Below are positions 15,604 to 61,423 of a DNA stretch of 64,000 nt, piece by piece. The DNA lies in contig DATLFP010000058.1 of the NCBI GenBank assembly GCA_035540955.1, positions 4,340-68,339 on the forward strand, given 5' to 3'. Made by a program: the position numbers and the translations under genes. This stretch comes from Acidimicrobiales bacterium. Lineage in GTDB: Bacteria > Actinomycetota > Acidimicrobiia > Acidimicrobiales > CADCSY01. Positions within the stretch are counted from its first letter, which is position 1; each line of letters starts with the position of its first letter. The notes under the pieces are model-generated. The model saw only the letters and a list, made by a program, of their open reading frames with translations, ran no database searches and had not been told where the DNA came from.

Positions 15604-17217
15604 TCAGATGCGGGCGATGGCCTCGGCCTTGAGGCGCTTGTAGTCGACCTTGCCGTTCGGGGCCCGGCCGATGGTGGCGACCTCGAACACCCGCTTCGGC
15701 GACTTGTAGGCCGCCAGCTTCGTCCGGACGTGGGCGATCACGTCGGCCTCGTCCACCGTGGCACCGGGCCGGGCCTCGACCATGGCGGTGATGGCCTCGC
15801 CGAACTTCTCGTCGGGCACGCCGACGACGACCGCGTCGGCCACCGACGGGTGCTGCTTCAGCACCTCCTCGACCTCCTCGGGGAAGACCTTCTCGCCGCC
15901 GGTGTTGATGCACACCGAGCCCCGGCCGAGCAGCGTGAGCGAGCCGTCGGCCTCGACGGTGGCCCAGTCACCAGGGATCGAGTAGCGCTCGCCGTCGATG
16001 GTCACGAACGTGGCTGCCGTCTTCGCCTCGTCCTTGTAGTAGCCGAGCGGGTTCGGCCCCTTCAGCGCCACGAGCCCGGCTTCGCCCGAGCCGGGCTCGA
16101 CCCAGCGGGTGCGGTCCTCGCTCACCACCCGGGCACGGGGCCCGAGCGCGAACTTCGCGGTCTTGGCCACGCCCTGGCCGCCGCCGGAGACCGACTGGCC
16201 CATCCCGATCGCCTCCGAGGACGAGAAGCCGTCGGACAGCAGCATCATCGGGTGGTGGCGGAGGAGCCCCTCCTTCGTCTCCTGCGACCACATCACGCCC
16301 GAGGAGGCGATGAGCTTCAGCGAGGAGATGTCCCACTTGCCGGGCGCGTCGTCGAGGGCCCGCAGCATCGGCTTGGCGAAGGCGTCGCCGACGATCGCCA
16401 TCGAGTTCACGCCCTCCCGCTCGATGGTGTCGAGCAGCTCGACCACCTCGAAGTGGCGGTTGGTGAGGGTGACGATCGACCCGCCGACGTCCATGGCCCC
16501 GAACGAGGTGAGCGCGCCGGTGCCGTGCATGAGCGGGCACGCCGGCAGGTGCACCTGCTGGGGGCCGGCCTCGGCGACGATCCGCCGCATCTCCTCGGGT
16601 GACGCGTCCTCCGGGAACTTCACGGTGGCAGCCGCGTTGAGCATCGAGAACAGGTCGCCCTGGCGCCACATGACGCCCTTCGGCATGCCCGTGGTGCCAC
16701 CGGTGTAGAGCATGTAGAGGTCGTCGCCCGACCGGCCCCACGGCGGCACGGTGCGCTCGGTCGCCGCCCCCGCCGCCGTCTCGTAGGGCACCGCCCACTC
16801 GGGGCACGGGTTGGACCCGTCGTCGACCCAGAGCCAGGTCTGCACGCGCGGCACCTTCGAGCGGATCCGCTCGATGGTCTCGGTGAAGGTGCCGTGGAAC
16901 ACCACGGCGACGGCGTCGGCGTTGTCCCACAGGTAGACGAGCTCGTCGTCGGTGTAGCGGTAGTTGGTGTTCACCGGAGCGAGACCGGCCTTCACGATCC
17001 CGAACAGCGACTCGAGGTACTCGGGCCCGTTGTAGAGGTACTGGGCGACCTTGTCCTGCTGCTGCACGCCGGCGTCGAGCAGCGTGCGGGCGATGCCGTC
17101 GGCGCGGCGGTCCATCTCCGACCACGTGTACCTGCGGTCGCCGTGGACCTGGGCCTGCGCGTCGGGGAGGCCGTCGGCGACGGCCTCCCAGATGTCGGCG
17201 AAGGAGTGCTGCGTCAC
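15604..17217 (-). CDS. long-chain acyl-CoA synthetase (FadD-like), paralog 1
   Basis: 537 aa. Motifs YTGGTTGMPKGV, GDWATVEADGSLTLLGRGSVCINTGGEKV, GKVDYKRLK. GTG start at 17217. Confidence 0.9.
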   Translation of the reverse strand: MTQHSFADIWEAVADGLPDAQAQVHGDRRYTWSEMDRRADGIARTLLDAGVQQQDKVAQYLYNGPEYLESLFGIVKAGLAPVNTNYRYTDDELVYLWDNADAVAVVFHGTFTETIERIRSKVPRVQTWLWVDDGSNPCPEWAVPYETAAGAATERTVPPWGRSGDDLYMLYTGGTTGMPKGVMWRQGDLFSMLNAAATVKFPEDASPEEMRRIVAEAGPQQVHLPACPLMHGTGALTSFGAMDVGGSIVTLTNRHFEVVELLDTIEREGVNSMAIVGDAFAKPMLRALDDAPGKWDISSLKLIASSGVMWSQETKEGLLRHHPMMLLSDGFSSSEAIGMGQSVSGGGQGVAKTAKFALGPRARVVSEDRTRWVEPGSGEAGLVALKGPNPLGYYKDEAKTAATFVTIDGERYSIPGDWATVEADGSLTLLGRGSVCINTGGEKVFPEEVEEVLKQHPSVADAVVVGVPDEKFGEAITAMVEARPGATVDEADVIAHVRTKLAAYKSPKRVFEVATIGRAPNGKVDYKRLKAEAIARI

Positions 17218-17282
17218 GGCATCCGCGCCCGGCCTTCGGCCGGGCCGCTCGGGCCTCGCTCGCTCGTTCCTCGCTCGCTCAT
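17214..17282 (-). repeat. intergenic repeat IGR-C copy 1 with bridging mini-ORF (MSERGTSERGPSGPAEGRARMP)
   Basis: It fills the gap between the two fadD paralogs. The mini-ORF ATG (17282) overlaps the upstream TGA (ATGA) and its TGA overlaps the downstream GTG (GTGA). The sequence is nearly identical to 23445-23507 and contains a GGCC-GAA-GGCC hairpin. Confidence 0.7.
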
Positions 17283-18904
17283 GAGGCGCCGGCCCCCACC
17301 CGCTCGGTGGCCAGTGCCTTCAGCCGCTTGTAGTCGACCTTGGCGTTGGGCGCCCGCCCGATGGTGTCGACCACGACGACGTGCTTGGGCGCCTTGTAGG
17401 CCGCCAGCTTCCCCTTCACATGGGCGATGACGTCGGCGGCGTCGACCTCGGCGCCCGGCTCGGGCTCGACCACGGCGGTGATCGCCTCGCCGAACTTCTC
17501 GTCGGGCACGCCCACGGCGACGGCGTCGCGGATGGCCGGGTGCAGCTTCAGGACCTCCTCGACCTCCTCGGGGAAGACCTTCTCGCCACCGGTGTTGATG
17601 CACACCGACCCCCGCCCCAGCAGGGTGATCGTGCCGTCGGCCTCCACCTGGGCGAAGTCGCCGGGCAGGGAGTACCGGATCCCGTCGATGGTGGGGAACG
17701 TGGCGGCCGTCTTGGCCTCGTCCTTGTAGTAGCCGACCGGCACGCGGCCCTTGATGCCGAGCCGGCCGATCTCGCCGGAGCCGGGCTCGACGAGCTTCCC
17801 GTCCTCGGAGACCACCACGGCGTTGGGGCCGAGGTTGAACTTGGCCGTCTTCGCGGCGGCGTCGCCGGTCGACGCCGATGACCCCATGCCCACCGCCTCC
17901 GAGGAGCCGAGGGAGTCGGCGAGGATCATCGACGGGTGGTGCTTCAGCAGGCCCTGCTTCACCGGCTCGCTCCACATCACGCCCGAGCTGAGGACGACGA
18001 GCACCGAGGAGAGGTCCCACTTGCCGGGGTTGGCGTCGAGCGCTCGCAGCATCGGCTTGGCGAAGGCGTCACCCACGATCACCAGCACGTTGACGCCGTG
18101 CCGTTCGACGAGGTCGAACAGCTCGGCGGCGTCGAAGGAGCGGTTCTCGAGGAGCACGACGCACCCGCCCGCCTGGAGAGCGCCGAAGGACGAGAGCGCG
18201 CCGGTGCCGTGCATGAGCGGGCACGCCGGCAGCAGCTTGGGTCCCGGCCCCTGGGCGCGGCGCTGGGCGACGGCGTCCTCGAGGCTCGCCCCCTCGGGGT
18301 ACGGCACCAGGCCGCCGCCGTTCAGCAGCCAGAACAGGTCCTCCTGCCGCCACATGACGCCCTTGGGCATGCCGGTGGTGCCGCCGGTGTAGAGCATGTA
18401 GAGGTCGTCGCCGTCGCGCGCCCAGGGTGCCGTGGGGCGGTCGACCGTGCGGGACGCGACCTCCTCGTACGACACCGCCCAGTCCGGCATCTCGCCGGCG
18501 CCGTCGTCGACCCAGTACCAGCGCTCGACGCGGGGAACGCGATCGCGGATGCGCTCGATCGTCTCGGTGAACGTGGCGTGGAAGACCACGGCGACGGCGT
18601 CGGCGTTGTCCCACAGGTAGACGAGCTCGTCGTCGGCGTAGCGGTAGTTGGTGTTGACCGGCACGAGGCCGACCTTCCACCCGGCGTACAGCGACTCGAG
18701 GTACTCGGTGCAGTTGTGGAGGTACTGGGCGACCTTCGCCTGGTGGGTGACCCCGTCGAGGGTGAGCAGGTCGGCGGCGACGGCGTCGGCGCGCCGGTCG
18801 AAGTCGCGCCACGACTGCAGCCGTTCGCCCTGGATCTGGGCCGGCGCGTCCGGCTGGACCTCGGCGATCGCTTCCCAGACGTCGGCGTAGTTCATCCCCG
18901 GCAC
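17279..18904 (-). CDS. long-chain acyl-CoA synthetase (FadD-like), paralog 2
   Basis: 541 aa, colinear with and clearly similar to 15604-17217 (same motifs, for example YTGGTTGMPKGVMWRQEDLF). GTG 18904, with ATG 18895 as an alternative. Confidence 0.9.
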   Translation of the reverse strand: MPGMNYADVWEAIAEVQPDAPAQIQGERLQSWRDFDRRADAVAADLLTLDGVTHQAKVAQYLHNCTEYLESLYAGWKVGLVPVNTNYRYADDELVYLWDNADAVAVVFHATFTETIERIRDRVPRVERWYWVDDGAGEMPDWAVSYEEVASRTVDRPTAPWARDGDDLYMLYTGGTTGMPKGVMWRQEDLFWLLNGGGLVPYPEGASLEDAVAQRRAQGPGPKLLPACPLMHGTGALSSFGALQAGGCVVLLENRSFDAAELFDLVERHGVNVLVIVGDAFAKPMLRALDANPGKWDLSSVLVVLSSGVMWSEPVKQGLLKHHPSMILADSLGSSEAVGMGSSASTGDAAAKTAKFNLGPNAVVVSEDGKLVEPGSGEIGRLGIKGRVPVGYYKDEAKTAATFPTIDGIRYSLPGDFAQVEADGTITLLGRGSVCINTGGEKVFPEEVEEVLKLHPAIRDAVAVGVPDEKFGEAITAVVEPEPGAEVDAADVIAHVKGKLAAYKAPKHVVVVDTIGRAPNAKVDYKRLKALATERVGAGAS

Positions 18905-20534: not shown

Positions 20535-20550
20535 TCGCGCCCACCGCTGC

Positions 20551-22745: not shown

Positions 22746-23174
22746 CTACTCGGTGATGCGGTAGGTCTGGACGGCCGACGCGACGACGCGGCCGTCGGCG
22801 TCGGTGGCTTCGATCTCGAGGAAGATCAGCTCGCGGGCGCGGCGCACGGTGCGGGCGGTGCACAGCAGGTCGGACTGGCGGGCGGCGCCGACGTAGTTGA
22901 CGGTCATGCTCACCGTCGACGCCTTCGAACCGCGGTCGAAGTCGTGGTTCGACCAGGCAGCCGCCGCGCCGGTCGTGTCGATCAGGGCGGCGACGACGCC
23001 GCCGTGGTACACGACGCCGTCGTTCGTGAGGTCCTCCCGGAACGGCAGCCGCATCCGCACGTGATCGGGCTCGTAGACCTCGAAGGTCATGCCCATCCGG
23101 CCGATGAAGGGCGTCTTCGGGAAGATCTCGGCGATGGCCGCCCGCTTGCGGACGTTCGGGTCGTCGTCGCTCAT
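22746..23174 (-). CDS. PaaI-family hotdog thioesterase
   Basis: 142 aa. GVVYHGGVVAALIDTTGAAA is typical of PaaI/4HBT class thioesterases. Confidence 0.85.
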   Translation of the reverse strand: MSDDDPNVRKRAAIAEIFPKTPFIGRMGMTFEVYEPDHVRMRLPFREDLTNDGVVYHGGVVAALIDTTGAAAAWSNHDFDRGSKASTVSMTVNYVGAARQSDLLCTARTVRRARELIFLEIEATDADGRVVASAVQTYRITE

Positions 23175-23419
23175 CGGCGGTTGACCGCCCCGAAGAGGAG
23201 GAGCAGGAGCGATGCGCCGACGAACGCGAGCAGGAGCGACCAGAGGCTGAACTCGTTGACGCCCGTCTCGCCGGCGGCGTTGGCGATGGCGCCCCCGATG
23301 AGCGCGCCCGCGACACCGAGGGCGATCCGGGTGAGGCAGCCACTGCTCTGCGCGCCCGTGGCCTTCTCGGCGAGGAGCCCGGCCAGGAAGCCGAGCACGA
23401 TCCAGGCGACGATGCTCAT
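23171..23419 (-). CDS. GlsB/YeaQ/YmgE-family small membrane stress protein
   Basis: 82 aa. MSIVAWIVLGFLAGLLAEK...GVAGALIGGAI matches the transglycosylase-associated protein family pattern. Its stop overlaps the thioesterase start by 4 nt. Confidence 0.85.
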   Translation of the reverse strand: MSIVAWIVLGFLAGLLAEKATGAQSSGCLTRIALGVAGALIGGAIANAAGETGVNEFSLWSLLLAFVGASLLLLLFGAVNRR

Positions 23420-23444
23420 GTAATCCGCTCTCGACGGTGCTGAC

Positions 23445-23507
23445 TCATGCTGTCCGCTCTCGGCCTTCGGCCGGGCCGCTCGGGCCCCGCTCGCTGCGCT
23501 CGCTCAT
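23445..23507 (-). repeat. intergenic repeat IGR-C copy 2 with mini-ORF (MSERSERGPSGPAEGRERTA)
   Basis: The minus-strand sequence ATGAGCGAGCGCAGCGAGCGGGGCCCGAGCGGCCCGGCCGAAGGCCGAGAGCGG... aligns with copy 1 apart from a 6-nt indel and a few substitutions. Its ATG overlaps the TGA of the reductase gene (ATGA). Confidence 0.7.
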
Positions 23508-27397: not shown

Positions 27398-27506
27398 AAG
27401 CGCAACGAGCCAAGGGCGCGCAGCCGCAGGGCCGGACGGCAGTCCGGCAGTCGGAGCGGCAAGCCGATCGCGAGCGCAACGAGCCGCGCGCGCAGAGCGG
27501 AGACGA
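27398..27506. repeat. intergenic repeat IGR-B copy 1 (between convergent MaoC and nucS genes)
   Basis: It fills the whole 109-nt gap. The block CGCAGGGCCGGACGGCAGTCCGGCAGTCGGAGCGGCAAGCCG...CGCAGAGCGGAGACGATCAG aligns with the reverse complement of 36950-37048 and partly with 61318-61423. It has an internal direct repeat GCGCAACGAGCC x2. Confidence 0.7.
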
Positions 27507-28260: not shown

Positions 28261-30003
28261 ATGGTCGAGCTGGATCAGCCGTGGGTCGTGGACAACCGAC
28301 CCAGTGAGCGGTTCCGCATCTACACGCGGGCGAACGTCGGCGAGGTGTTCCCCGATCCCGTCACCCCGCTGTCCTGGACGGTGGCCGGCGCGAAGTACGG
28401 CGAGGCCGGCTGGCGCGACGCGCTCGAGCGCTTCGGTGCCGTCACGCACGCCGAGTTCGATCCCGACAACCTCGAGGTCATGGGCGTGTTCGGGGGGTAC
28501 TGCTACCTGAACGTGTCGGTCTCCCGGCTGATGGGGGTGCGCACGCCAGGGCTCACGTGGGAGGCGATCGACTACTCGCTGTTCGGGGTGCAGCCCGGCA
28601 TCCCGCCCTACGAACCGGCGGACGGCGACGAGAGCGACGAGCGGTCGGCGGCGTGCGGCGCCACCCTGCAGTGGATCCTCACCACCGAGTCGCTGCCCGA
28701 GCTGGTCGAGCACCAGCAGGCCATCGCCGAGCTGCGGGCCGAGCGCCCGGACCTCACGACGCTGCCGGACGCCGCGCTCGTCGACCGCCTGCGCGACCTG
28801 ATGGGCACCTGGTTCCGCACGCTGTTCGGCGAGCACCTCTTCATCACCTACTGCTCGACGGTGCCGGCGGGGATCATCGCCCAGGTGTGCCAGGCGGTCG
28901 GCGATCCCACCCTCGCCAACCGGCTCATCGCCGGCATCGGCGGGGTCGACTCGGCGGCGCCGTCATGGGCCATGTGGGAGCTGGGCCGGATGGCGGCGGC
29001 GTCACCGGCGATCACCGCCCAGTTCGAGGCGGGGACCGGCGATCTCGTCGAGCGGCTGCGGGCCAGCGACGACCCCGAGGAGCAGCGGTTCGTCGCCGCC
29101 TTCGACGACTTCCTCTACGAGTTCGGCTCCCGGGGCCCCAACGAGTGGGAGATGCGGTCGCCGACGTGGGAGACCCGGCCCGGTCTCGCGCTCGGCGCCA
29201 TCGACCGGATGCGGCTCACCAGCGAGATCGACGCCCCGCAGAAGCACCACGAGGCGATGGCCGCCGACCGGGAGGCGCTCGTGGCCCACATCGGTGAGCA
29301 GCTGGCGGGCGATCCCGAGACGCAGGGCCAGTTCCTCGCCGCCGTGCGCGCCGCCGGGGTGTTCCTCGCCGGCCGGGAGCGCACCAAGACGACGATCATC
29401 CGGCTGACGCACGAGGCCCGGATGGCGATGCGCGAGCTCGGTCGGCGGATGGTCGAGGCCGGTCACTTCGACGACATCAACGACTTCGGGATGATCCGCG
29501 ACGACGAGTACGACGCGTTCCTAGCCGATCCGGCGTCGTTCACCGGGACCATCCGCGAACGCAAGGCGTGGTACGCCGAGCTGGCGGCACTCGAGCCGCC
29601 GTTCGTGGTCACCACCGGCAACATCCCGCCGGCCTCGACGTGGGCGCGTCGCGACGCGGACCGCCACGACCTCGCGCAGCCCGGAGACGTGCTCGAGGGG
29701 CTGCCCGGGTGCCCAGGTGTGGCCACGGGCCGGGCGCGGGTGATCCTCGACAGCAACGACCCGACGGCGCTCGAGCCCGGCGACGTGCTCGTCGCCCCCA
29801 TCACCGACCCGTCCTGGACACCGCTGTTCGTCCCCGCGGCGGCCGTCGTCGTCGACGTCGGCGCCCAGATCAGCCACGCCATCATCGTCAGCCGGGAGCT
29901 GGGCATCCCGTGCGTGGTGTCGGTGACCGGTGGTACCAAGCGGATCCCCGACGGTGCGACGGTCACCGTCGACGGCACGAAGGGCACGGTGACGGTCCTG
30001 TGA
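28261..30003 (+). CDS. PEP-utilizing enzyme (mobile/swivel phosphohistidine domain) protein, RPH/PpsA-like without an ATP-grasp domain, paralog 1
   Basis: The C-terminal ~100 aa are a swivel domain with the conserved His (GCPGVATGRARVI...ITDPSWTPLF...GAQISHAIIVSRELGIPCVV). The N-terminal ~480 aa show no ATP-grasp motifs. ATG 28261 chosen because it sits divergent from nucS. Confidence 0.85.
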   Translation: MVELDQPWVVDNRPSERFRIYTRANVGEVFPDPVTPLSWTVAGAKYGEAGWRDALERFGAVTHAEFDPDNLEVMGVFGGYCYLNVSVSRLMGVRTPGLTWEAIDYSLFGVQPGIPPYEPADGDESDERSAACGATLQWILTTESLPELVEHQQAIAELRAERPDLTTLPDAALVDRLRDLMGTWFRTLFGEHLFITYCSTVPAGIIAQVCQAVGDPTLANRLIAGIGGVDSAAPSWAMWELGRMAAASPAITAQFEAGTGDLVERLRASDDPEEQRFVAAFDDFLYEFGSRGPNEWEMRSPTWETRPGLALGAIDRMRLTSEIDAPQKHHEAMAADREALVAHIGEQLAGDPETQGQFLAAVRAAGVFLAGRERTKTTIIRLTHEARMAMRELGRRMVEAGHFDDINDFGMIRDDEYDAFLADPASFTGTIRERKAWYAELAALEPPFVVTTGNIPPASTWARRDADRHDLAQPGDVLEGLPGCPGVATGRARVILDSNDPTALEPGDVLVAPITDPSWTPLFVPAAAVVVDVGAQISHAIIVSRELGIPCVVSVTGGTKRIPDGATVTVDGTKGTVTVL

Positions 30004-31736
30004 GAACCACCTTCATCACCGACACGCAGCCGAGTGAGAAGTACCGCATCGTGTCGCGCGCGAACGCCGGTGAGGTCATGCCCGACCCGTGCTCACCGCT
30101 GAACGCGACGCTGGGCATGTTCGAGGCCGGGGAGAAGGGCTGGCGGGACGCGTACGTCGTCACCGGCACCTTCCGGCGCGACGAGTTCGAGCCCGATCGC
30201 ACGAACACCATCCACTGCTTCGGCGGCTACATGTACATCAACATGTCGCTGACGCGGCTGTACGGCCTCCGAACCGGGCTGATGACCCCCGAGCAGGTCG
30301 ACCTCCAGTACTTCGGGGAGATGGCGGGCATCCCGCCGTACGAGGACGAGGCGCGGCCGACCGACGTCTCGCCCGAGGCGACCGAGAAGCTCACGGCCTT
30401 CTTCGCGTCCGAGGTCTGGGCGAAGGAGGACCTGCCCGAGCTGCGGGACGACGCCGCGCAGACCGAGCGGCTCGTGCGTTCGCGGCCCGACTTCGCCGAG
30501 CTGTCGAACCAGGAGCTCGTCGACCACGCGCGCTCGTTCGTCCCGCTCTACCGCCGCCTGTTCGGCCGTCACATCATCATCTCCGGCAACTCGGGTATGG
30601 GGATCGGGACGGTCTCGGCGGTCTGCGCCGCCGTCGGCCGCCCCGAGCTCACCATGACGCTGGTGGCGGGCCTCGGCGACGTCGACTCGGCGGCGCCGTC
30701 GATGGCGATGTGGGATCTCGGCCGGCTGGTCGCGGGATCCGAGGCGCTGACCGCCGCGTTCCGCGCCGGCGTGCCCGGGCTGCTCGACCGGTTGCGGGCG
30801 GACGGCTCGAAGGACGTCCAGCGCTTCCTCGACGGGTTCGACGCGCTGCTCGAGCGGTTCGGGTCGCGGGGCCCGAACGAGTGGGAGCTGCGCTCGCACA
30901 CGTGGGGGACCAAGCCCGAGCTGGCGCTGGCGGCCATCGACCGCATGCGGCTGTCGCCCGACGGTGCCGCTCCCGCCGGCCACCAGGCCGAGCGCAAGGC
31001 GGAGGCCGACGCCGCGGCCGACGAGGTGCGGGTACTCGTGGCCGGCGACGCCGAGGCGGCGGGTCAGTTCGAGGCCGGCCTGCGGGCGGCCCGCCTGTTC
31101 CTCGCCGGTCGCGAGCGATCGAAGACGAACTGCATCCGCATCGTGCAGGAGATGCGCTTGGCGCTGCGCGAGGTCGGTCGCCGCCTCCTCGACGCCGGCC
31201 ACCTCGACACGGTGGAGCAGCTGTTCATGTTCACCGACGACGAGCTCGATCAGGTGCTCGTCGACCCCGGGGCGTGGACGGCCGTCGCCCGCGAGCGCGA
31301 GCAGCAGTACCTCGAGCTGTTCGAGCTCGAACCGCCGTTCGTGATCGTGGGCGACCCGCCGCCGCTGTCGTCGTGGACGCGGCGCGACGCTTCCACGGTC
31401 GAGCAGGCCGTCGCCGGCACCGTGCTCACCGGCATCCCCGGTTGCCCGGGAACGGCCCGGGGCCGGGCCCGGGTGATCCTCGATCCGTCCGATCCGACCG
31501 CGCTCGAGCCCGGCGACATCCTCGTCGCCCCGCTCACCGACCCGGCGTGGACGCCGCTGTTCGTCCCCGCCGCGGCCGTCGTCGTCGACGTCGGCGCCCA
31601 GATCACCCACGCCGTGATCGTGAGCCGCGAGCTCGGGATCCCGTGCGTCGTCTCGGTCACCGGGGCAACGAAGACCATCCCCGACGGCGCCGAGATCGAG
31701 GTCGACGGCACCACCGGCACCGTCACGCTCCTCTGA
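30000..31736 (+). CDS. PEP-utilizing enzyme (swivel domain) protein, paralog 2
   Basis: Colinear with paralog 1 throughout (RANAGEVMPDPCSPL..., GSRGPNEWELRS..., GAQITHAVIVSRELGIPCVV). The GTG at 30000 overlaps the paralog-1 stop (GTGA). Confidence 0.85.
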   Translation: MRTTFITDTQPSEKYRIVSRANAGEVMPDPCSPLNATLGMFEAGEKGWRDAYVVTGTFRRDEFEPDRTNTIHCFGGYMYINMSLTRLYGLRTGLMTPEQVDLQYFGEMAGIPPYEDEARPTDVSPEATEKLTAFFASEVWAKEDLPELRDDAAQTERLVRSRPDFAELSNQELVDHARSFVPLYRRLFGRHIIISGNSGMGIGTVSAVCAAVGRPELTMTLVAGLGDVDSAAPSMAMWDLGRLVAGSEALTAAFRAGVPGLLDRLRADGSKDVQRFLDGFDALLERFGSRGPNEWELRSHTWGTKPELALAAIDRMRLSPDGAAPAGHQAERKAEADAAADEVRVLVAGDAEAAGQFEAGLRAARLFLAGRERSKTNCIRIVQEMRLALREVGRRLLDAGHLDTVEQLFMFTDDELDQVLVDPGAWTAVAREREQQYLELFELEPPFVIVGDPPPLSSWTRRDASTVEQAVAGTVLTGIPGCPGTARGRARVILDPSDPTALEPGDILVAPLTDPAWTPLFVPAAAVVVDVGAQITHAVIVSRELGIPCVVSVTGATKTIPDGAEIEVDGTTGTVTLL

Positions 31737-33031: not shown

Positions 33032-33032
33032 C

Positions 33033-33084
33033 AGATCTCGGGCCGGTGAAGGCCCTGGTGGGGCTTCCACCGGCCCGAGATCTC
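33033..33084. terminator. long hairpin between convergent genes
   Basis: Arms AGATCTCGGGCCGGTGAAG (33033-33051) / CTTCCACCGGCCCGAGATCT (33065-33084) form a ~19-bp stem with one bulge. Confidence 0.5.
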
Positions 33085-33092
33085 CTGGGGGC

Positions 33093-33908
33093 TCAGAACC
33101 GGGGTGGGCGCTTGTCCTGCAGGGCGCGGACGCCCTCGGTGAAGTCCGGCTCGCCGACCATGCGCTGGAGCAGGGCGTAGGAGTCGGCGACGGAGTCGTC
33201 GAGCGATCGACCGGTCAGGTCGGCCCACAGCTGTTGCTTGATCGTTGCCAGGGACGACCGCGAGATCTCGGCGGCGATGGTGCGGGCGTAGTCGAGCGTC
33301 GCGTCGACCCCGCACACGCGATCGACGAGCCCCATCGCCAGCGCCTCCTCGGCCAGCACCACCCGCGACGAGAACAGCAGATCGGCGGCCCGGGAGCGGC
33401 CGACGAGCCGGGGGAGCAGCCACGACGACCCGTACTCGGCGGGTAGCCCCAGCCGGCCGAACGAGGTCGTGAGCTTCGCCCCCGACACGGCGAACCGAAG
33501 GTCGCAGAACAGCGCGAGCACGAGGCCGACCCCGGCCACCGGGCCGTTGATGGCGGCGATCACCGGCTTCGACATCCGCAGCTGCCACGCGAACCCCCGC
33601 TCGGGCTCTCCGCTCAGACGGCCGCTCGGGCCGGGTTCCCCGCCGCCGCCGTCGCTGTCGCCCGTACCGGGGTCGTAGGTGCCGCTCTCGGCCATCGGAC
33701 CGAGCGCGGCGGCGTCAGCGCCGGCGCAGAACCCCCGCCCGGCGCCGGTGACCACCACCACCCGCACCGCGGGGTCGGCCTCGGCGTCGGCCATCGCGGC
33801 GCGGTAGGCCGACTCCATCCGACCGGTCCACGCGTTGAGCCGCTCGGGCCGGTTCAGCGTGACGGTGGCGACGCCGCCGTCGACCTCGACCAGCACCGGC
33901 TCGCTCAC
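33093..33908 (-). CDS. enoyl-CoA hydratase/isomerase (crotonase) family
   Basis: Start at GTG 33908 gives VSEPVLVEVDGGVATVTLNRPERLNAW, followed by GRGFCAGAD and AAINGPVAGVG. It has an unusual Gly/Asp-rich insertion (GTYDPGTGDSDGGGGEPGPSG). Confidence 0.9.
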   Translation of the reverse strand: MSEPVLVEVDGGVATVTLNRPERLNAWTGRMESAYRAAMADAEADPAVRVVVVTGAGRGFCAGADAAALGPMAESGTYDPGTGDSDGGGGEPGPSGRLSGEPERGFAWQLRMSKPVIAAINGPVAGVGLVLALFCDLRFAVSGAKLTTSFGRLGLPAEYGSSWLLPRLVGRSRAADLLFSSRVVLAEEALAMGLVDRVCGVDATLDYARTIAAEISRSSLATIKQQLWADLTGRSLDDSVADSYALLQRMVGEPDFTEGVRALQDKRPPRF

Positions 33909-33991
33909 TGGCGCTCGCTGCCACGAACGTTGTCGCGCTCGCCCGCCTGCGGCGGCGCAGCGCGACAACCTTCGAAGTCGGGGCGAGTCAC
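33905..33991 (-). repeat. intergenic repeat IGR-A copy 1 with bridging mini-ORF (VTRPDFEGCRAAPPQAGERDNVRGSERQ)
   Basis: Hairpin arms CGAACGTTGTCGCG (33924-33937) / CGCGACAACCTTCG (33961-33974). The mini-ORF GTG overlaps the cysQ TGA (GTGA) and its TGA overlaps the hydratase GTG (GTGA). It aligns with 51854-51963. Confidence 0.7.
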
Positions 33992-34777: not shown

Positions 34778-34780
34778 GGA

Positions 34781-36949: not shown

Positions 36950-37048
36950 ATGGTCTCGCTCTGCGCCGGGAGGCTCGCTGGCGCTCGCGGACGGCTTGCC
37001 GCTCGACATGCCGGACTGCCGTCCGGCCCTGCGGGATGCGCGCCGTGA
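36950..37048 (+). repeat. intergenic repeat IGR-B copy 2 (inverted) with bridging mini-ORF between cysN and cysC
   Basis: Its reverse complement aligns with 27398-27506 (CGCAGGGCCGGACGGCAGTCCGGCA..GAGCGGCAAGCCG..CGCAGAGCGAGACCAT). A 32-codon mini-ORF starts at ATG 36950 directly after the cysN TAG and ends at TGA 37046-37048, overlapping GTG 37045 in the cysC frame. Confidence 0.7.
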
Positions 37049-37635
37049 GCGGTCCCGACGTCTCCTGGCACCACGGTGAGGTGGGTCGCGACGAGCGACC
37101 GTCGCGTGGCGCCACGGTCTGGCTCACGGGCCTCAGCGGCTCCGGCAAGTCAACCGTCGCGGCCCGCGCCGAACGGCTGCTCGTCGATGCCGGCCGGCCC
37201 GCCTACGTGCTCGACGGGGACAACCTGCGGCACGGGCTGAACGCCGACCTCGGCTTCAGCGACGATGACCGCCGGGAGAACGTGCGCCGGGTGGGTGAGG
37301 TGGCCCGGCTGATGGCCGACGCCGGGGTGGTCGTCCTCGTACCGGTGATCTCGCCGTTCCGAGGCGCCCGGGAAGCGGTGCGGTCGGCCCACGAGGTCGC
37401 CGGGATCCCGTTCGTCGAGGTGTTCGTCGACACCCCGATCGAGGAGTGCGAGCGGCGCGATCCCAAGGGCCTCTACGCCAAGGCCCGCCGGGGCGAGCTC
37501 GCCGGCTTCACCGGGATCGACTCGCCCTACGAGCCGCCGGTCGCCGCCGATCTGGTCCTCACGCCGGCCGACGGCGACCCGGACGCTCAGGCGCGGCGGC
37601 TGCTCGTGGTGTTGGAGGAGTCCGCCGGCCCGTAG
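37036..37635 (+). CDS. cysC: adenylylsulfate (APS) kinase
   Basis: TVWLTGLSGSGKST (P-loop), LDGDNLRHGLN, PFVEVFVDTP. The start is either ATG 37036 or GTG 37045 (GTGA-coupled to the mini-ORF). Confidence 0.9.
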   Translation: MRAVSGPDVSWHHGEVGRDERPSRGATVWLTGLSGSGKSTVAARAERLLVDAGRPAYVLDGDNLRHGLNADLGFSDDDRRENVRRVGEVARLMADAGVVVLVPVISPFRGAREAVRSAHEVAGIPFVEVFVDTPIEECERRDPKGLYAKARRGELAGFTGIDSPYEPPVAADLVLTPADGDPDAQARRLLVVLEESAGP

Positions 37636-48045: not shown

Positions 48046-49677
48046 ATGGCAACGAAGCATCTCGTGGTCGATGGATCGAACATCGCGACCGAAGGTCGGA
48101 CGATGCCTTCGCTCGCGCAGCTCGACGAAGCCGTGCGCGCGTTCATCGCCGAGCGGCCGATGGACAACTACACCGTGATCGTCGACGCCACGTTCGAGCA
48201 CCGCATCGACGCGTCGGAGCGGAAGCTCTACGACGACGCGCTTGCCGCCAACGAGCTCATCGTCACGCCGGCCGGGACCGTCGGTCGCGGCGACCGCTTC
48301 ATCCTCGAGGTTGCCGACCGCGCCGGTGCCATCGTGCTCTCGAACGACTCGTTCCAGGAGTTCCACGGCGACTACGGCTGGCTGTTCGACTCGGGACGCC
48401 TGATCGGCGGCCGGCCGGTCCCCGGCGTCGGCTGGGTGTTCGTCGAGCGCTCACCGGTGCGAGGACCCAAGAGCCGCCAGGCGACCCGCGACGCCAAGCG
48501 CAAGCGGGGGCCGGCCACCAAGGCGGCCGCCGCGCCCCGCGCGGCGCCCACGGCGCCCTCGAAGTCGTCGGGGCGCCCCCGAGGGGCGAAGAAGGCGGTG
48601 GGCGACGCCGCACCTGCGAAGCGGGCGAAGGCGGCCGGGCCGGGCAAGGCGGCCGGCAAGCCGGCCGGCAAGCCGCCGGCGGCGAAGGCGCCGCCGCGCG
48701 AGGGCGATGGCCGGCGCCGGACCGGTCGTCCTCAGCAGCCGCTCAACGACCAGCTGCCCTTCATCGAGTTCATCGCCGAGCACCTGCCGGGCAGCACGGT
48801 CGAGGGCGAGGTCGTGGAGTTCAGCAGCCACGGCGCCTATGTCCAGATCGGCGACGTCCGCTGCTACGTCCCGCTGAAGAACATGGGCGACCCGCCGCCC
48901 CGCAGCGCGCGCGACGTGCTCGAGCGGGGCCAGGTCCGCACGTTCGTCGTCCACTCCATCGAAGCGGCCCGGCGCGGGATCGACCTCGCGCTGCCCGGCT
49001 TCGAACGCATCGCGGCATCGCCGACCGAACCGGTCGCGACGCCACCTCGGCCCCGCCGCTCGCGCGCGGCAGCGGCCGACACGACCCTGCCGGTTGCCGC
49101 GTCGAACGACGCCGCTCCGGCAGTGGACAGGGCCCCGGCTGCGGCCGGGGCGAACCAGCCCGAAAGCGAGGCCACACTGGCAGCAACCAAGAAGGCAGCG
49201 GGTCGAAAGACCGCGGCCAAGAAGAGCACGGCTCGCAAGAGCACGGCGAAGAAGGCCACGGCCCGGAAGTCGACCGCTCGCAAGGCAACTGCCAAGCGCG
49301 CGCCGGCGAAGAAGGCCACGGCTCGGAAGCGCACCGCCAAGAAGGCGACGGCCAAGAAGTCGACCGCCAAGAAGGCGACTGCCCGGAAGAGCACGGCCAA
49401 GAAGAGCGCAGCCAAGAAGAGCACGGCTCGCAAGAGCACGGCCAAGAAGGCTGCGAAGAAGAGCACGGCCAAGAAGAGCACCGCGAAGAAGGCGGGTGCC
49501 CGGAAGAGCTCGGCCAAGAAGGCCGGCGCTCGCAAGCGCCCGGCCAAGAAGAGCACAGCCAAGAAGAGCACGGCTCGCAAGAGCACGGCTCGCAAGCGCC
49601 CGGCCAAGAAGAGCACGGCTCGCAAGAGCACGGCCCGGAAGGCCGGCGCCCGGAAGAGCACGGCGCGCAAGCGCTGA
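48046..49677 (+). CDS. NYN (Zc3h12a/regnase-like) ribonuclease domain - S1-like domain - histone-H1-like Lys/Ala/Thr/Ser repeat tail protein
   Basis: N-terminal [11 protein letters not shown]...[25 protein letters not shown] (cf. regnase VVIDGSNVA...DDRFIV...GIVVSNDTY). Middle segment [27 protein letters not shown] (S1 fold). The last ~160 aa are about 30 repeats of (K/R)K(S/A)TA. Confidence 0.8.
49186..49674 (+). repeat. coding tandem repeat (15-nt / 5-codon periodicity) encoding the basic tail
   Basis: Units such as AAGAAGAGCACGGC(T/C)CGCAAGAGCACGGCC recur many times with small variations. They are in frame and lie inside the 48046-49677 CDS. Confidence 0.85.
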
Positions 49678-51853: not shown

Positions 51854-51963
51854 CTCACGAAGGTTGTCGCGCTCGCCCGGTCGGGGCGGGTGTCCGCGAC
51901 AACCTTCGAGCCCGGTCGGGGCGGGTGTCCGCGACAACCTTCGAGCTCGGTGGGGGGTGGCGG
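51854..51963. repeat. intergenic repeat IGR-A copy 2 with a perfect 35-bp internal tandem duplication
   Basis: It fills the gap between convergent genes. The left arm CGAAGGTTGTCGCG (51858-51871) is complementary to CGCGACAACCTTCG at 51895-51908 and again at 51930-51943. The units 51876-51910 and 51911-51945 are identical. Confidence 0.75.
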
Positions 51964-55487: not shown

Positions 55488-56108
55488 GTGCCCTTCCCCA
55501 AGAAGCTGCTCAACAGCGGTGAGCGGCTCGTCGTCGACATCCGGCCCCACTGGTGGTTCTTCTCGAGGCCGGCGGCCGCCCTCACCGTGTCGCTCGTGGG
55601 CCTCGTCTACCTGCGCTGGGTCCGCGACTGGACCGAGGGCGGCGGTGCCGCGGTGACCCTCGTGTTCGTCGCGCTCACCCTCCTGTCGCTCCTGTGGTTC
55701 GTGGGCCGCTACTTGAAGTGGATGACGACCAACTTCGTGGTGACCAGCCATCGTCTGGTCTTCCGCGAGGGCGTCGTCGCCAAGCAGGGCATCGAGATCC
55801 CCCTCGACCGCGTCAACACGATCTTCTTCAACCAGTCGATCTTCGAGCGGCTGATGGGCACGGGCGACCTCACCATCGAGTCGGCCGGCGAGCGGGGCAC
55901 GCAGAGCTTCAGCGACATCCGCAAGCCCTCCCAGGTGCAGAACGAGATCTATCGCCTCATCGAGGAGGAACAGGACACCCACGCCGGTCTCGGCCGCGAG
56001 CAGTCCATCCCCGACCAGCTCGAGAAGCTCGACGAGCTGCGGCGCCGGGGGGTCATCAGCGAGGCCGAGTTCCAGGCGAAGAAGGCGAAGCTTCTCGACC
56101 GCATGTGA
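55488..56108 (+). CDS. membrane bPH (YdbT/DUF304-like) domain protein with C-terminal SHOCT domain
   Basis: Two TM helices follow LVVDIRPHWWFF, then the PH-like core (VVTSHRLVFREGVVAKQGIEIPLDRV), then the SHOCT motif (QLEKLDELRRRGVISEAEFQAKKAKLL). Confidence 0.8.
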   Translation: MPFPKKLLNSGERLVVDIRPHWWFFSRPAAALTVSLVGLVYLRWVRDWTEGGGAAVTLVFVALTLLSLLWFVGRYLKWMTTNFVVTSHRLVFREGVVAKQGIEIPLDRVNTIFFNQSIFERLMGTGDLTIESAGERGTQSFSDIRKPSQVQNEIYRLIEEEQDTHAGLGREQSIPDQLEKLDELRRRGVISEAEFQAKKAKLLDRM

Positions 56109-56150
56109 AGCTTCTCGACCGCATGTGAAGCTGCTCGACCGCATGTGAAG
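56087..56150 (+). repeat. 20-bp tandem repeat (3 full copies plus a partial) spanning the stop codon of the SHOCT gene
   Basis: GAAGCTTCTCGACCGCATGT is at 56087-56106 and 56107-56126, GAAGCTGCTCGACCGCATGT at 56127-56146, followed by GAAGCGGCTCGCC. Confidence 0.9.
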
Positions 56151-56174
56151 CGGCTCGCCCCGAAAACGACGATT

Positions 56175-58380: not shown

Positions 58381-59277
58381 TCACGCGATCCCGACGGCCG
58401 CGGCGAAGCGCTCGAGGGCGTCGGGGTCGAAGGGTGCCCGCATGGCGATGTTGATCTGCTCGGCACCGGCGTCGACGTACTGGCCGATCCGGTCGAGCAT
58501 CTCCTCCTCGGTGCCGAACAGCACGCCGGGCCGGACGTGCTCGGCGATGTTGCCGAACTGCTCGCGGAGGCCGTCCTCGCTGAACGCCATGCCCACGTTG
58601 ATCGTGCAGCGGATCTCCGCCGGGTCCCGACCCACGTCGGCGCAGTGCCGGTGCAGCACGTCGCGCTTGCGGGCGAACTCCTCGGGCGAGATGAACGGCA
58701 CGTTCCACCCGTCGGCGTGCCGGGCGGCGATCCGCAGCGTCCGCTTCTCGCCGCCGCCCCCGACCCAGATCGGCACCTTGGCCTGCACCGGCCGCGGCTC
58801 GTTGCGGGCGTCGCGCACCTGGAACCAGCGGCCCTCGAAGGTCGTCGTCTCGTCGTGGAGCAGCCCCCGCAGCACCTGGATGCCCTCCTCGAGCTGGTCC
58901 ATGCGGGTGCCCACCGGCGGGAACGGGATGCCGTAGGCGTCGTACTCGATCTGGCTCCAACCGGCGCCGATGCCGACGTCGGTCCGGCCTCCCGAGAGGT
59001 GGTCGATCGTGGCGATGGCGTTGGCGAGCACCGCCGGGTGCCGGTACCCGACGCTGTACACGAGGGAACCGCACCGCACCTTCGTCGTCGACAGCGCCAG
59101 CGCAGCGTGCATGCTCACCGCTTCGAGGCAGGTGGCGTCGCCGGTCATGTCGGCGGCGTAGAAGTGGTCCCACACCGAGATCCAGCCGTAGCCGAGGTCC
59201 TCGATGCGTTTGTAGAGGTCGACCAGCTCACCGGCCGGCACCTTCTGCAGCCCGGCGTGCACCCCGAACGTCGTCAT
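58381..59277 (-). CDS. LLM-class (luciferase-like) F420/flavin-dependent oxidoreductase
   Basis: 298 aa. ISVWDHF, IATIDHLSGGRTDVGIGAGW, PIWVGGGGEKRTLRIAARHADGWN. Confidence 0.9.
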   Translation of the reverse strand: MTTFGVHAGLQKVPAGELVDLYKRIEDLGYGWISVWDHFYAADMTGDATCLEAVSMHAALALSTTKVRCGSLVYSVGYRHPAVLANAIATIDHLSGGRTDVGIGAGWSQIEYDAYGIPFPPVGTRMDQLEEGIQVLRGLLHDETTTFEGRWFQVRDARNEPRPVQAKVPIWVGGGGEKRTLRIAARHADGWNVPFISPEEFARKRDVLHRHCADVGRDPAEIRCTINVGMAFSEDGLREQFGNIAEHVRPGVLFGTEEEMLDRIGQYVDAGAEQINIAMRAPFDPDALERFAAAVGIA

Positions 59278-59302
59278 GGCCGGTCACCATATGATCCGGC
59301 CC

Positions 59303-60172
59303 ATGCCGCGCGCGCAGTGCAATGGGATCGAGATCGAGTTCGACACCTTCGGGAGCAGCGACGACCCCGCCCTCCTGCTGATCATGGGCTTCAGCGCCCA
59401 GATGACGGCGTGGGAGGAGGGGTTCTGCCGCCGCCTCGCCGACGAGGGCTTCCACGTCATCCGGTTCGACAACCGCGACGTCGGGCTGTCGTCCCGCATC
59501 ACCGGTGGGCCCGAGCCCGACATCGCCAAGGCGATGAGCGGCGACCCCTCGTCGGCGGCCTACACCCTCGACGACATGGCCGACGACGCCGCCGGACTGC
59601 TCGACGCGCTGGGGATCGACACCGCCCACATCGTCGGCGCGTCGATGGGCGGCATGATCGCCCAGCTGGTCGCGTGCCGGCATCCGGAGAAGACGCTGAG
59701 CCTCTGCTCGATCATGTCGACCACCGGAGACCCGTCGGTGGGCCAGCCGCAGCCCGAGGCGATCGCCGCCCTGCTCGCGCCGCGGCCCACCACCCGCGAG
59801 GAGGCGGTGGAGCGGGGCGGTGAGGTGGGCCGCATCATCGGCTCACCCGTCCACTTCGACGAGGCGAAGGCGCGCCAGCGGGCGGGCGAGGCGTTCGACC
59901 GGGCCAACGACCCGGACGGCGTCGCCCGGCAGCTCGTGGCGATCATGGCGTCGGCCGACCGCACGCCGGCGCTGGGCAACGTGAACGTGCCCACCCTCGT
60001 GATCCACGGCGCCGCCGACCCGCTCGTGACGCCGAGCGGCGGTGAGGCCACGGCGAAGGCGGTGCCCGGCGCCGACCTGCTCGTGCTCGAGGAGATGGGC
60101 CACGACCTGCCCGAGCCGCTGTGGCCGGGCATCGTCGACGCCATCGTCACCAACGCCAGGAGGGCTTCCTAG
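59303..60172 (+). CDS. alpha/beta-fold hydrolase
   Basis: PALLLIMGF, nucleophile elbow GASMGG, C-terminal GHDLP. Start taken at ATG 59303 (track start 59276 would overlap the divergent LLM start). Confidence 0.85.
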   Translation: MPRAQCNGIEIEFDTFGSSDDPALLLIMGFSAQMTAWEEGFCRRLADEGFHVIRFDNRDVGLSSRITGGPEPDIAKAMSGDPSSAAYTLDDMADDAAGLLDALGIDTAHIVGASMGGMIAQLVACRHPEKTLSLCSIMSTTGDPSVGQPQPEAIAALLAPRPTTREEAVERGGEVGRIIGSPVHFDEAKARQRAGEAFDRANDPDGVARQLVAIMASADRTPALGNVNVPTLVIHGAADPLVTPSGGEATAKAVPGADLLVLEEMGHDLPEPLWPGIVDAIVTNARRAS

Positions 60173-61321
60173 ATGGGCACCGGACCGCTCAGCGGCTACA
60201 CGATCATCGAGCTCGCCGGGATCGGTCCCGGCCCGTTCTGCGGGATGCTCCTCTCCGATCTCGGCGCCGACGTGATCCGCGTCGACCGCGCCCAGGCGGT
60301 TCGGGGCGGCGACCCCGCCAACCCGCCGCTCGACATCCTCGCCCGGGGCCGGCGCTCGATCGGCGTCGACCTGAAGAACCCCGACGGCGTCGAGACCGTG
60401 CTGAAGCTGGTGGAGAAGGCCGACGCCCTCTTCGAGGGGTTCCGGCCCGGCGTCACCGAGCGCCTCGGCCTCGGCCCCGACACCTGCCTGGCCCGCAACC
60501 CGACGCTCGTCTACGGGCGCATGACGGGCTGGGGCCAGGAGGGCCCCTACGCCCACGCCGCCGGCCACGACATCAACTACATCGCCCTCGCCGGCGCGCT
60601 GCATCCCATCGGCCGCGCCGGCCAGGCGCCGGTGCCCCCGCTCAACCTCGTCGGTGACTTCGGGGGAGGCGGGCTCATGCTCGCGTTCGGCATCGTCTGC
60701 GCCCTCCTCGACGCCCAGAAGACCGGCACCGGCCAGGTCATCGACGCCGCCATGGTCGACGGGGCCGCCACCCTCACGGCGTTCGTCTACGGCCTCAAGG
60801 CGATGGGCATGTGGACGACGGAGCGGGGCACGAACCTGCTCGACACCGGCGCCCACTTCTACGACGTCTACGAGACCAAGGACGGCGAGCACGTGTCGAT
60901 CGGCTCGATCGAGCCGCAGTTCTACGCCGAGCTGCGCCGGCTGGCCGGACTCGACGACGACGAGTGGAGCGCGCAGATGGACCGCTCGCAGTGGCCGGCG
61001 CTCAAGGAGAAGATCGCGGCCGTCTTCAAGACCAGGACCCGCGACGAGTGGAACGGCATCATGGAGCACACCGACGTCTGCTACGCCCCGGTGCTCTCCT
61101 TCGACGAGGCCTACCAGCACCCCCACAACATCGCCCGCGGCACGTTCAAGGAGGTGGCGGGGATCGTGCAGCCCGGACCGTCGCCGCGGTTCTCGCGCAC
61201 GCCGGGCGAGATCCAGGGCCCGGCGGCCCACGCCGGCCAGCACACCGACGACGTGCTCGCCGGGTTCGGCTTCGACGCCTCCGAGATCGCCAAGCTCCGA
61301 GAGGCCGGCGCGGTCAGGTGA
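60173..61321 (+). CDS. CaiB/BaiF family III CoA-transferase, alpha-methylacyl-CoA racemase (Mcr/AMACR)-like
   Basis: [36 protein letters not shown] and [11 protein letters not shown] are characteristic of the family. Confidence 0.9.
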
Positions 61322-61423
61322 CGAGGTGCGTGTCGCGTCGCGGCGCCGGCGCGCAGGTGCAGGCTCGTCTGAGCGGCAAGCCGCACGCCGAAGGCCGCTA
61401 CGCGCAGCGCGGAGACCACTGAG
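61318..61423 (+). repeat. intergenic repeat IGR-B copy 3 with bridging mini-ORF (34 codons)
   Basis: It shares GAGCGGCAAGCCG and CGCAGCGCGGAGACCACTGAG with the other B copies, plus a CCGAAGGCCG module. The mini-ORF GTG 61318 overlaps the CoA-transferase TGA (GTGA) and its TGA (61420-61422) ends 1 nt before the next gene's ATG. Confidence 0.65.

Follow-up and report, generated by a model that had tools for sequence, protein, structure and literature searches.

How can short repeats settle between genes that overlap or abut in related genomes, and what becomes of an operon when they do? The question is raised by a stretch of 64,000 nucleotides (nt) from an uncultured Acidimicrobiales bacterium (GenBank assembly GCA_035540955.1, contig DATLFP010000058.1, positions 4,340 to 68,339), which we call the window and which has a G+C content of 71.8%. 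It carries a set of intercistronic repeats that resemble the mycobacterial interspersed repetitive units (MIRUs), and that this set is a real feature of an uncultured actinobacterial lineage is well supported. The elements are short, non-coding, GC-rich interspersed repeats that have spread to many intergenic sites within one uncultured Acidimicrobiales clade. Inside operons the upstream stop codon and the downstream start codon are retained, and the element is spanned by one or two small open reading frames (ORFs). We believe, with a probability of roughly two in three, that these are mobile or recombinationally spread junction repeats, and that within operons only those copies persist which match the reading frame and preserve the coupling of the flanking genes.

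The repeats and their families

An earlier note, written from the letters of the window, had listed seven intergenic segments, sorted them into three subtypes and joined these in one superfamily. All seven are real and lie where the note placed them, its interpretation largely stands, and every one of the segments is, or brackets, a complete intergenic spacer. The list had missed a short eighth copy related to subtype B and a further family, which we call D. The elements are 43-134 nt long and occupy nine loci within the window. They are listed here, together with a partial duplicate and with one mini-ORF on a line of its own:

12900-12942, plus strand: the short B-like eighth copy, with a GGGCCGAAGGCCC hairpin and a GCGCAGAGCGAAGACCA B-type end, between convergent genes
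17214-17282, minus strand: A1, with a 22-codon mini-ORF (ATG 17282-17280, TGA 17216-17214), between two tandem fadD-like genes; ATGA on the upstream stop (17282) and GTGA on the downstream start (17217)
23445-23507, minus strand: A2, with a 20-codon ORF, between the FAD reductase and Transgly_assoc genes
23416-23448, minus strand: partial duplicate of the 3' end of A2, with a 10-codon ORF and a downstream ATGA at 23419-23416
27398-27506, plus strand: B3, the whole spacer between the convergent stop codons of the MaoC dehydratase and NucS genes
33032-33092, no strand given: D, a near-perfect 16+7 bp hairpin AGATCTCGGGCCGGTG...CACCGGCCCGAGATCT, 3' of an enoyl-CoA hydratase gene, between convergent genes
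33905-33991, minus strand: C4, with a long hairpin GAACGTTGTCGCG...CGCGACAACCTTC and a 28-codon mini-ORF from GTGA (33991) to GTGA (33908), between the cysQ-like and enoyl-CoA hydratase genes
36950-37048, minus strand (B orientation): B5, exactly between the cysN TAG and the cysC GTG
36950 (ATG) to 37046-37048 (TGA), plus strand: the mini-ORF of B5, 32 codons, with TAG followed directly by ATG at 36950 and GTGA at 37045
51854-51963, no strand given: C6, made up of the C hairpin and 2.3 tandem copies of a 35-nt unit (51875-51956; Tandem Repeats Finder (TRF), 95% matches), between convergent genes
61318-61423, plus strand: B7, with a 34-codon mini-ORF (GTG 61318 to TGA 61420-61422; a single G separates it from ATG 61424); the CoA-transferase and PIG-L deacetylase genes lie on either side

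The junctions that the earlier note described (17282/17217, 33991/33908, 36950/37045, 61318/61424 and 23507) are all correct; the mini-ORFs have 22, 20 (with 10 more in the duplicate), 28, 32 and 34 codons.

When each segment was compared with the window by blastn-short, three pairs of intergenic segments proved significantly similar. A1 and A2 match over 35 nt at 97% identity (E = 1e-12), B3 and B5 match in reverse complement over 55 nt at 93% (E = 2e-12), and C4 and C6 match over 24 nt at 96% (E = 5e-6) and have their hairpin arms in common as well. The seventh segment (61318-61423) has no significant pairwise match in this comparison. It aligns with the B copies module by module, including the invariant GAGCGGCAAGCCG and the terminal GCGCAGMGCGGAGAC; the middle of the B alignment is variable and holds either a GCGAGCGC-AGCGAGCC module or a GGCCGAAGGCC hairpin. 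Its score of 52 bits against the B profile is partly circular, the segment having been included when the profile was built. The subtypes A, B and C stand as significant pairs, with the seventh segment only a module-sharing relative of B and with D as a fourth family.

The idea of a superfamily is borne out at the level of common modules. GCGAGCG occurs 9 times in six of the eight elements, against 0.44 occurrences expected from the rest of the window, and CCGAAGG is present in four elements, a 26-fold enrichment; overall the common modules are enriched 20-26 fold. A superfamily by common modules is therefore a fair description of A, B and C, and D is a separate hairpin family.

Copies at other loci

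The earlier note had made its claim depend on further copies elsewhere, and these exist both in the same species and in relatives. Near-identical strain contigs of the same species are found in ENA/JGI metagenomes (L001, L027, L127-L130 and L147 in our numbering of loci); L027 agrees with the end of the window at 99.98% identity, and L026 is from the same JGI metagenome as L027. The orthologous regions of relatives were collected via homologues of FadD and NucS, and their protein identity to the window is ~82-87%.

Outside the window B copies lie in L026, L049 and L083, and a short B-like copy was found by eye in L135 (3068-3113). One A copy is in L131 (9496-9546) and a C-like hairpin in L006. 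The D copies found by nhmmer are mostly between convergent genes; those at L026 4728-4797 and L147 15439-15506 are in DNA of the same species, those at L131 2720-2805 and L006 286-345 in relatives. B3 matches the L026 copy over 83 nt at 92% identity, and B7 is identical in the strain contigs L001 and L027. Of the four strain contigs that encode an identical NucS protein, L128-L130 keep the 109-nt B3 spacer and give a match to the B profile, and L127 breaks off shortly after nucS, too early to cover the spacer. DNA of the same species holds ~12 element loci in ~80 kb, roughly one per 7 kb, and hundreds of copies per genome would be a reasonable extrapolation from this local density.

The profiles of A-D have no nhmmer match in the relatives L004, L005, L126, L133 and L136, which stand at ~85% protein identity. 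Relatives that lack A-D bear palindromic repeats of their own (e.g. TCGTTTGTGCGGTGAATTCGGCCC...), several of them at the convergent NucS/MaoC junction:

L133 3767-3820 and 11978-12042: own palindromic repeats
L135 5573-5628: own palindromic repeat
L126 10661-10734: own palindromic repeat
L004 7088-7171: own palindromic repeat

The presence of these repeats where A-D are missing suggests a rapid, lineage-specific turnover of 3'-end hairpin repeats.

Broader searches added little. The 21-nt core of the B hairpin gave two chance matches only (Bradyrhizobium and Gemmiger) in a species-representative genome collection from which the source genome is absent. A metagenome scan with the pattern GAGCGGCAAGCCG N{10,40} GCGCAGMGCG yielded 4 true copies among the 119 stretches listed, the rest being mostly chance occurrences in coding DNA. 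When four element types were compared by blastn with 72,556 plasmids, the one match was marginal (49 nt, 82%, E = 0.009) and lies in a Gordonia gene. In viral contigs the A pattern has only chance coding matches and the C pattern has none.

Filled and empty sites

Are the segments insertions, or are they conserved ends of the genes on either side? The earlier note had raised this question, and the orthologous loci show insertions, with empty sites for seven element copies: A1, A2, the A copy of L131, B5, the B-like copy of L135, C4 and D.

Between the two fadD genes the window reads ATGA, 61 nt and GTGA, with aligned coding sequence on both sides, versus a single GTGA/ATGA overlap in L004 and L005; the gene calls in L131 likewise overlap by 4 nt. 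The cysN and cysC genes abut directly in L126 (...CAT TAG GTG GCG..., position 2755-2756) and are separated in the window (...CAT TAG, 95 nt, GTG AGC...) solely through the insertion of B5. The cysQ and enoyl-CoA hydratase (ech) genes overlap by 22 nt in L126 and L131, with no spacer. In the window cysQ retains its last residues and stops at TGA, C4 comes next, and ech restarts at a GTG that sits within a GCGAGCG-type module. Between the FAD reductase and Transgly_assoc genes L131 has a GTGA overlap and L004 and L126 have a 9-nt spacer. The window has at this place (23416-23507) a chain of ATGA, A2, ATGA, the partial duplicate of the A2 end and ATGA, in which the second, 10-codon ORF completes the link to the downstream gene.

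The comparison also works in reverse, with the window as the empty site. Both the window (23171-23174) and L126 have nothing but ATGA at the junction of the Transgly_assoc and 4HBT genes, where L131 has an A element flanked by ATGA at either end. Likewise, the two Rph-like genes meet at a bare GTGA in the window (30000-30003), and in L135 they are parted by the short B-like element with GTGA on both sides; in L126 this junction reads TGATG. The D site after ech is filled in the window and in L131 and empty in L126, where the convergent stop codons overlap. At two sites a relative holds something else: an unrelated 74-nt hairpin spacer at the B3 site in L126, and an unrelated 21-nt spacer at the 12900 site in L005. 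The clean empty junctions at orthologous loci show that the elements are insertions at very tight gene junctions and not conserved gene ends. The junctions entered are RTGA start/stop overlaps, stop codons that directly abut a start, and overlapping convergent stop codons.

What stands at the two ends of a filled site bears on how the elements arrived. The 4-nt sequence RTGA is on both sides in 5/9 of the co-directional copies and is absent or different in B5, L049, L026 and the convergent copies. For A1, the A copy of L131 and the B-like copy of L135 there is RTGA on both sides versus a single RTGA in relatives, as in direct repeats of the MIRU type. A single RTGA when empty and one at each end when filled fits either a 4-bp target duplication or an HUH-type insertion beside a tetranucleotide. 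B5 and L049, which have TTAG on one side, and the convergent copies depart from any single insertion rule, and B5 is a clean insertion between TAG and GTG with no visible direct repeat. We considered L049 as an orthologue of the cysN junction and rejected it, as its upstream protein is unrelated to CysN. The end of B5 in which TAG is followed by ATGGTCTCGCTCTGCGC recurs at this unrelated locus, and the CATTAG-ATGGTCTC end common to both is therefore a property of the element or of its target and not of the locus.

It is possible, if doubtful, that we are looking at elements of the type of repetitive extragenic palindromes (REPs) or palindrome-associated transposable elements (PATEs), moved by an HUH (Y1) enzyme, either a REP-associated tyrosine transposase (RAYT) or an IS200/IS605 transposase, and inserted beside a TGA-containing tetranucleotide. 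On this view the seemingly duplicated RTGA would consist of the target and the end of the element, and the bridging by small ORFs described below would be a design feature. Such an origin is consistent with internal and subterminal hairpins in the place of terminal inverted repeats, with the five copies that have RTGA at both ends and with their single-RTGA empty sites. The three A copies all have the same orientation relative to transcription, and C and D resemble REPs in their palindromic form and in their position at gene 3' ends. However, no RAYT or IS200/IS605 gene is present among the genes examined, namely those in the overlaps of L001 and L147 with the window, the genes flanking the elements and those of the fetched loci. 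The GTAG/CGTC heads typical of REPs are absent, and the TTAG of B5 and L049 and the convergent copies, which lack a direct repeat, do not suit the idea either.

Small ORFs that bridge the junctions

Co-directional genes that overlap or abut in relatives flank five of the eight A, B and C copies of the window and four copies outside it. We define a coupling chain as one that begins at the upstream stop and places every following start at -4, -1 or 0 to +3 nt relative to the stop before it; between the last stop and the downstream start the same positional relation must hold. A complete chain is found in 9/9 of these copies (A1, A2, C4, B5 and B7 in the window, and those of L026, L049, L131 and L135) versus 2/33 of the ordinary co-directional spacers of 15-160 nt at the same loci (Fisher p = 1.2e-7). 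Bridging is thus far commoner than in ordinary GC-rich spacers of these genomes; the earlier note had made its claim depend on an excess over random GC-rich spacers. The junctions within the chains are mostly ATGA or GTGA, with TAG directly before ATG in B5 and L049 and TGA-N-ATG or TAA-N-ATG in B7 and L026. An NTGA overlap is also the commonest junction of these genomes in general (16/84 co-directional pairs).

It is the phase of the lengths that is informative. The distances from RTGA to RTGA are 65, 59, 29, 47, 83 and 50 nt, and 6/6 of these are 2 mod 3, that is 3n+2, an outcome with a chance probability of (1/3)^6 = 0.0014. Among the three A copies the differences in length are 6 and 12 nt. 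When 1-2 nt are added or deleted, A1, C4 and B5 lose their bridging altogether, and B7 and L026 lose nearly all of it. The earlier note had taken the double-ended overlaps at 17214-17282 and 33905-33991 for its strongest evidence, and here we disagree, as individually these are the weakest. In dinucleotide shuffles that keep the length and fix RTGA at both ends, A1 is still bridged in 91% and C4 in 87%; B7, L026, L049, A2 and B5 are bridged in 3-19% of shuffles. What carries weight is the length phase, together with the empty sites and the consistency of nine out of nine.

Whichever way the B copies face relative to transcription they are bridged, and the resulting peptides are unrelated, which argues for a constraint on the frame and against a conserved peptide. 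The proposal that the mini-ORFs are functional micropeptides, and the repeats small paralogous genes, is very improbable for this reason. It can point to ORF start codons in good coupling context and to the likeness of the A peptides (MSERGTSERGPSGPAEGR... and MSERSERGPSGPAEGR...), but this likeness merely mirrors the identity of the DNA, and the shortest mini-ORF has 10 codons, the longest 45. When proteins were searched with the peptides in concatenated form, a test that was probably technically weak owing to X spacers and compositional bias, there was no match at E <= 10.

Chance likeness and chance ORFs in GC-rich spacers have next to no probability as an explanation. It is true that open frames are frequent at 72% G+C and that NTGA readily makes start codons. 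However, E-values down to 1e-12, the copies at other loci and in other genomes, the clean empty sites and the excess of bridging (9/9 vs 2/33) refute a chance origin.

RNA structure

The hairpins of C and D fold far better than shuffled sequence, with z-scores of -3.55 for C4, -3.0 on the plus and -4.2 on the minus strand for C6, and -5.67 for D. A structure of the whole element was considered for A and B and rejected, as their z-scores are near those of shuffles and only short modules are conserved. One such module is hairpin 1 of B (CCGGAC-GNNA-GTCCGG), in which both sides have changed at 4/7 pairs and 95% of cells are paired, in an alignment of only six sequences; values as high as those observed arise in 0-2/500 column shuffles, and the pairing is lost in slid controls. 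Reading the sequences directly, we found no T-run after any hairpin on either strand, so these hairpins differ from intrinsic terminators in having no U-tract. The covariance models of Rfam 15 give no match at the gathering score and, at E <= 1, two irrelevant matches away from the elements.

These hairpins raise the possibility that the elements are host cis-regulatory structures, such as terminators or attenuators without a U-tract, stabilisers of mRNA 3' ends or processing sites, with mini-ORFs that are incidental. The exceptional stability of C and D (z -3 to -5.7) speaks for this, as do the four window copies that lie exactly between convergent stop codons, the different hairpin repeats that relatives hold at the NucS/MaoC junction, and the compensatory changes in B hairpin 1. 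For the copies between convergent genes this explanation overlaps with the one that we prefer. As an account of the whole set it is unlikely. It leaves the 9/9 frame-matched bridging ORFs and the 3n+2 spacings unexplained, A and B fold like shuffles, B occurs in both transcript orientations, T-runs are lacking, and relatives function without a spacer at these junctions.

How a coupled operon may accommodate an insertion

Our preferred explanation, that junction repeats spread and persist in operons only when they keep the coupling, would work as follows. The ancestral gene pairs would have been co-transcribed and, as we infer, translationally coupled, NTGA overlaps being the commonest junction here. 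After an insertion, a ribosome that ends the upstream gene would re-initiate on the mini-ORF, translate through it and melt the hairpins of the element. It would then terminate at the downstream start and re-initiate once more, and the coupling of the uninterrupted junction would be kept. To survive in an operon, a copy would need a length of 3n+2, or one that matches the frame in another way, together with an open relay frame; either this design is inherent in the elements or copies without it are lost through selection. Copies between convergent genes, those with the C and D hairpins among them, would occupy the position of a 3'-end hairpin with no requirement for an ORF, and they may act as terminators without a U-tract or as stabilisers.

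It is important to realize what weighs against this explanation. Co-transcription and the translation of the mini-ORFs are what we infer from sequence, and the downstream start codons are predicted ones, of which those of fadD, cysC and ech are backed by homology to relatives. No transposase, inverted terminal repeat or other signature of mobilisation was found. Frames are usually open at 72% G+C, as the 87-91% of bridged RTGA-ended shuffles attest, and the signal depends on phase and on the agreement among only nine insertions, which come from several related genomes. If transposition duplicates RTGA and the elements have a fixed 3n+2 design, then bridging could be a by-product and not the outcome of selection at the individual sites. 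A and B as whole elements fold no better than shuffles (z +0.3 to -1.6), for which reason the melting of hairpins would apply mainly to the short modules and to C.

The thought of a fixed design can be taken further. We tentatively consider, without thinking it likely, that the elements are mobile DNA specialised for junctions: they would be inserted specifically at TGA-containing start/stop overlaps by an enzyme, for which a single-strand HUH/Y1 transposase is the most plausible candidate, and the relay would be built in, with a length of 3n+2, the used frame open in either orientation and an ATG at one end. If this were true, insertion into an operon would be nearly neutral, the strategy would be an independent and convergent counterpart of that of MIRUs in a different actinobacterial class, and stop/start overlaps would be a genomic niche for selfish DNA.

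Comparison with known repeats

MIRUs have been described from Mycobacterium species (Supply et al. 1997, summarised in PMC3184786). They are 40-100 bp long, number ~40-50 per genome and lie in intergenic positions within operons, where they form part of polycistronic transcripts; sites that are filled in one species are empty in another, tetranucleotide direct repeats are present, and the ends of their ORFs overlap the adjacent genes (PMC3184786). Our elements resemble them in size, in intergenic dispersal between genes that would form operons, in filled and empty sites among relatives, perhaps in the occasional tandem duplication, in tetranucleotide direct repeats at the two ends and in small ORFs that overlap the flanking stop and start codons. 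The 53-bp MIRU292 unit of M. avium paratuberculosis has, by our own reading, the same geometry, running from ATGA to ATGA with a 3n+2 spacing and an 18-codon ORF. The analogy of architecture drawn in the earlier note is apt. The differences are as clear: there is no significant sequence similarity, and the host is represented by a metagenome-assembled genome (MAG) of Acidimicrobiales and not by a Mycobacterium. Here there are several modular families, whereas MIRUs are three size classes of one consensus; B works in both orientations, and the same families also occur in convergent spacers. Most of our elements are single copies and not variable-number tandem repeat (VNTR) arrays, with tandem units only in C6 and in the partial duplicate of A2.

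Could the two nevertheless be true homologues, an ancient actinobacterial family? We think this improbable. The architecture is the same and both hosts are Actinomycetota, GCAGAGCGAAG is also found in a primer derived from a repeat of M. intracellulare, and TGACTCGCnCCGAC is, by our own reading, common to C4 and the reverse complement of MIRU292. However, local alignments of MIRU292 and two other M. avium paratuberculosis tandem repeats with 13 elements are no better than shuffles after multiple testing. The best p for MIRU292 is 0.05 uncorrected, and homology is rejected on the strength of this single MIRU unit. Moreover, A-D cannot be detected by profile in several relatives of ~85% identity, the only trace being the short B-like copy seen by eye in L135; with turnover this fast, deep homology with MIRUs would be untraceable. 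Every architectural MIRU feature that was tested is found here, yet we do not class the elements as MIRUs because the similarity to MIRU292 is not significant and the host belongs to a different class. The earlier note had recognized neither a MIRU nor any other named repeat in these sequences, which agrees with this result.

REPs and the bacterial interspersed mosaic elements (BIMEs) composed of them are also short, GC-rich extragenic palindromes, numerous at the 3' ends of genes and between the genes of operons, and C and D come closest to them. They differ from our elements, which have no GTAG/CGTC head and of which A and B are modular and not simple palindromes. REPs are not known to have frame-matched bridging ORFs.

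MITEs, or miniature inverted-repeat transposable elements, such as Correia/NEMIS, RUP, ERIC and Nezha are likewise non-autonomous, ~100 bp long and polymorphic in their insertions, with short direct repeats at the insertion site. Some bacterial MITEs are co-transcribed and provide ORF extensions. In contrast to them, A and B lack terminal inverted repeats, no parent IS has come to light, and the sequence repeated at the flanks is RTGA in place of TA or TNA. In A the two ends (GCGAGCGAGG... and ...GCGGATGCC) are not inverted copies of each other, nor are they in B (ATGGTCTCGCTCTGCGC... and ...GGATGCGCGCC).

The proposed working principle is that of termination-reinitiation coupling at NTGA overlaps and at short relay or leader ORFs (PMC4833913, PMC2268962), and re-initiation after short ORFs has been discussed for Actinobacteria (PMC4833913). 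The difference is that here the relay ORF would come from a repeated, inserted element and not from a leader specific to one locus. No account of such repeats in Acidimicrobiia or in other non-mycobacterial actinobacteria was found in the searchable literature.

Why the junctions matter

Few independent test cases have so far been available for the idea that the small ORFs of MIRUs preserve coupling. The environmental Acidimicrobiales clade provides a second example that is unrelated in sequence, with clean filled and empty sites, several families and both orientations. It is an independent, multi-family test case for whether repeats that settle at operon junctions are filtered by translational coupling or make use of it, and it makes the coupling hypothesis testable by comparative genomics, through phase statistics, and by reporter assays. 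There are practical consequences as well. The repeats inflate intergenic distances and create spurious N-terminal extensions and small-ORF calls in the annotation of MAGs; they can split genes that seem fused or coupled, such as cysN and cysC, and they may break short-read assemblies.

Flanking genes and other features of the window

Genes in the window were called with a frame-score model based on G+C at third codon positions (GC3), which agrees with the pipeline calls wherever both exist. Our caller missed the true cysC start at 37045 and set it at 37207 instead. The names that the earlier note gave to the flanking genes proved essentially right. Pfam finds AMP-binding (twice), FAD reductase, Inositol_P/CysQ-like, ECH, CysN-type GTPase, APS kinase and PIG-L, and the CoA-transferase beside B7 is CoA_transf_3 by precomputed Pfam matches.

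Two pairs of tandem paralogues lie in the window, the fadD-like genes (15604-18904; 72-84% DNA identity) and the PEP-utilizer/Rph-like genes (28261-31736; 72-80%), and each is kept as a pair in relatives. A1 splits the former in the window, and in L135 the short B-like element does the same to the latter.

A conserved non-coding motif, GATTTCACCGC[CG]CAAAC...AATAGCGTC, stands upstream of a short-chain dehydrogenase gene in relatives, and the window carries its reverse complement in the spacer beside a fadD-like gene. The sites are:

window 15526-15603: GATTTCACCGC motif
L004 12902-12943: GATTTCACCGC motif
L005 5285-5532: GATTTCACCGC motif
L006 8021-8237: GATTTCACCGC motif

The motif is probably the operator or promoter region of a lipid or steroid catabolic cluster and not one of the A-D repeats.

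Two tandem repeats of another kind were also seen. At 56087-56151 an almost perfect 20-nt unit is repeated 3.2 times (GAAGCTTCTCGACCGCATGT, 97% matches); it spans the 3' end of the gene at 55488-56108 and the next spacer and is followed by a GC hairpin, GCCGGGCCGTGGGGCCCGGC. The gene at 48103-49677 on the plus strand encodes a C-terminal tail of ~30 or more pentapeptide repeats (array 49214-49671; TRF counts 28 copies with a 15-nt period). The repeat gives the gene a low coding score, and the tail resembles the lysine/alanine-rich tails of actinobacterial histone-like proteins.

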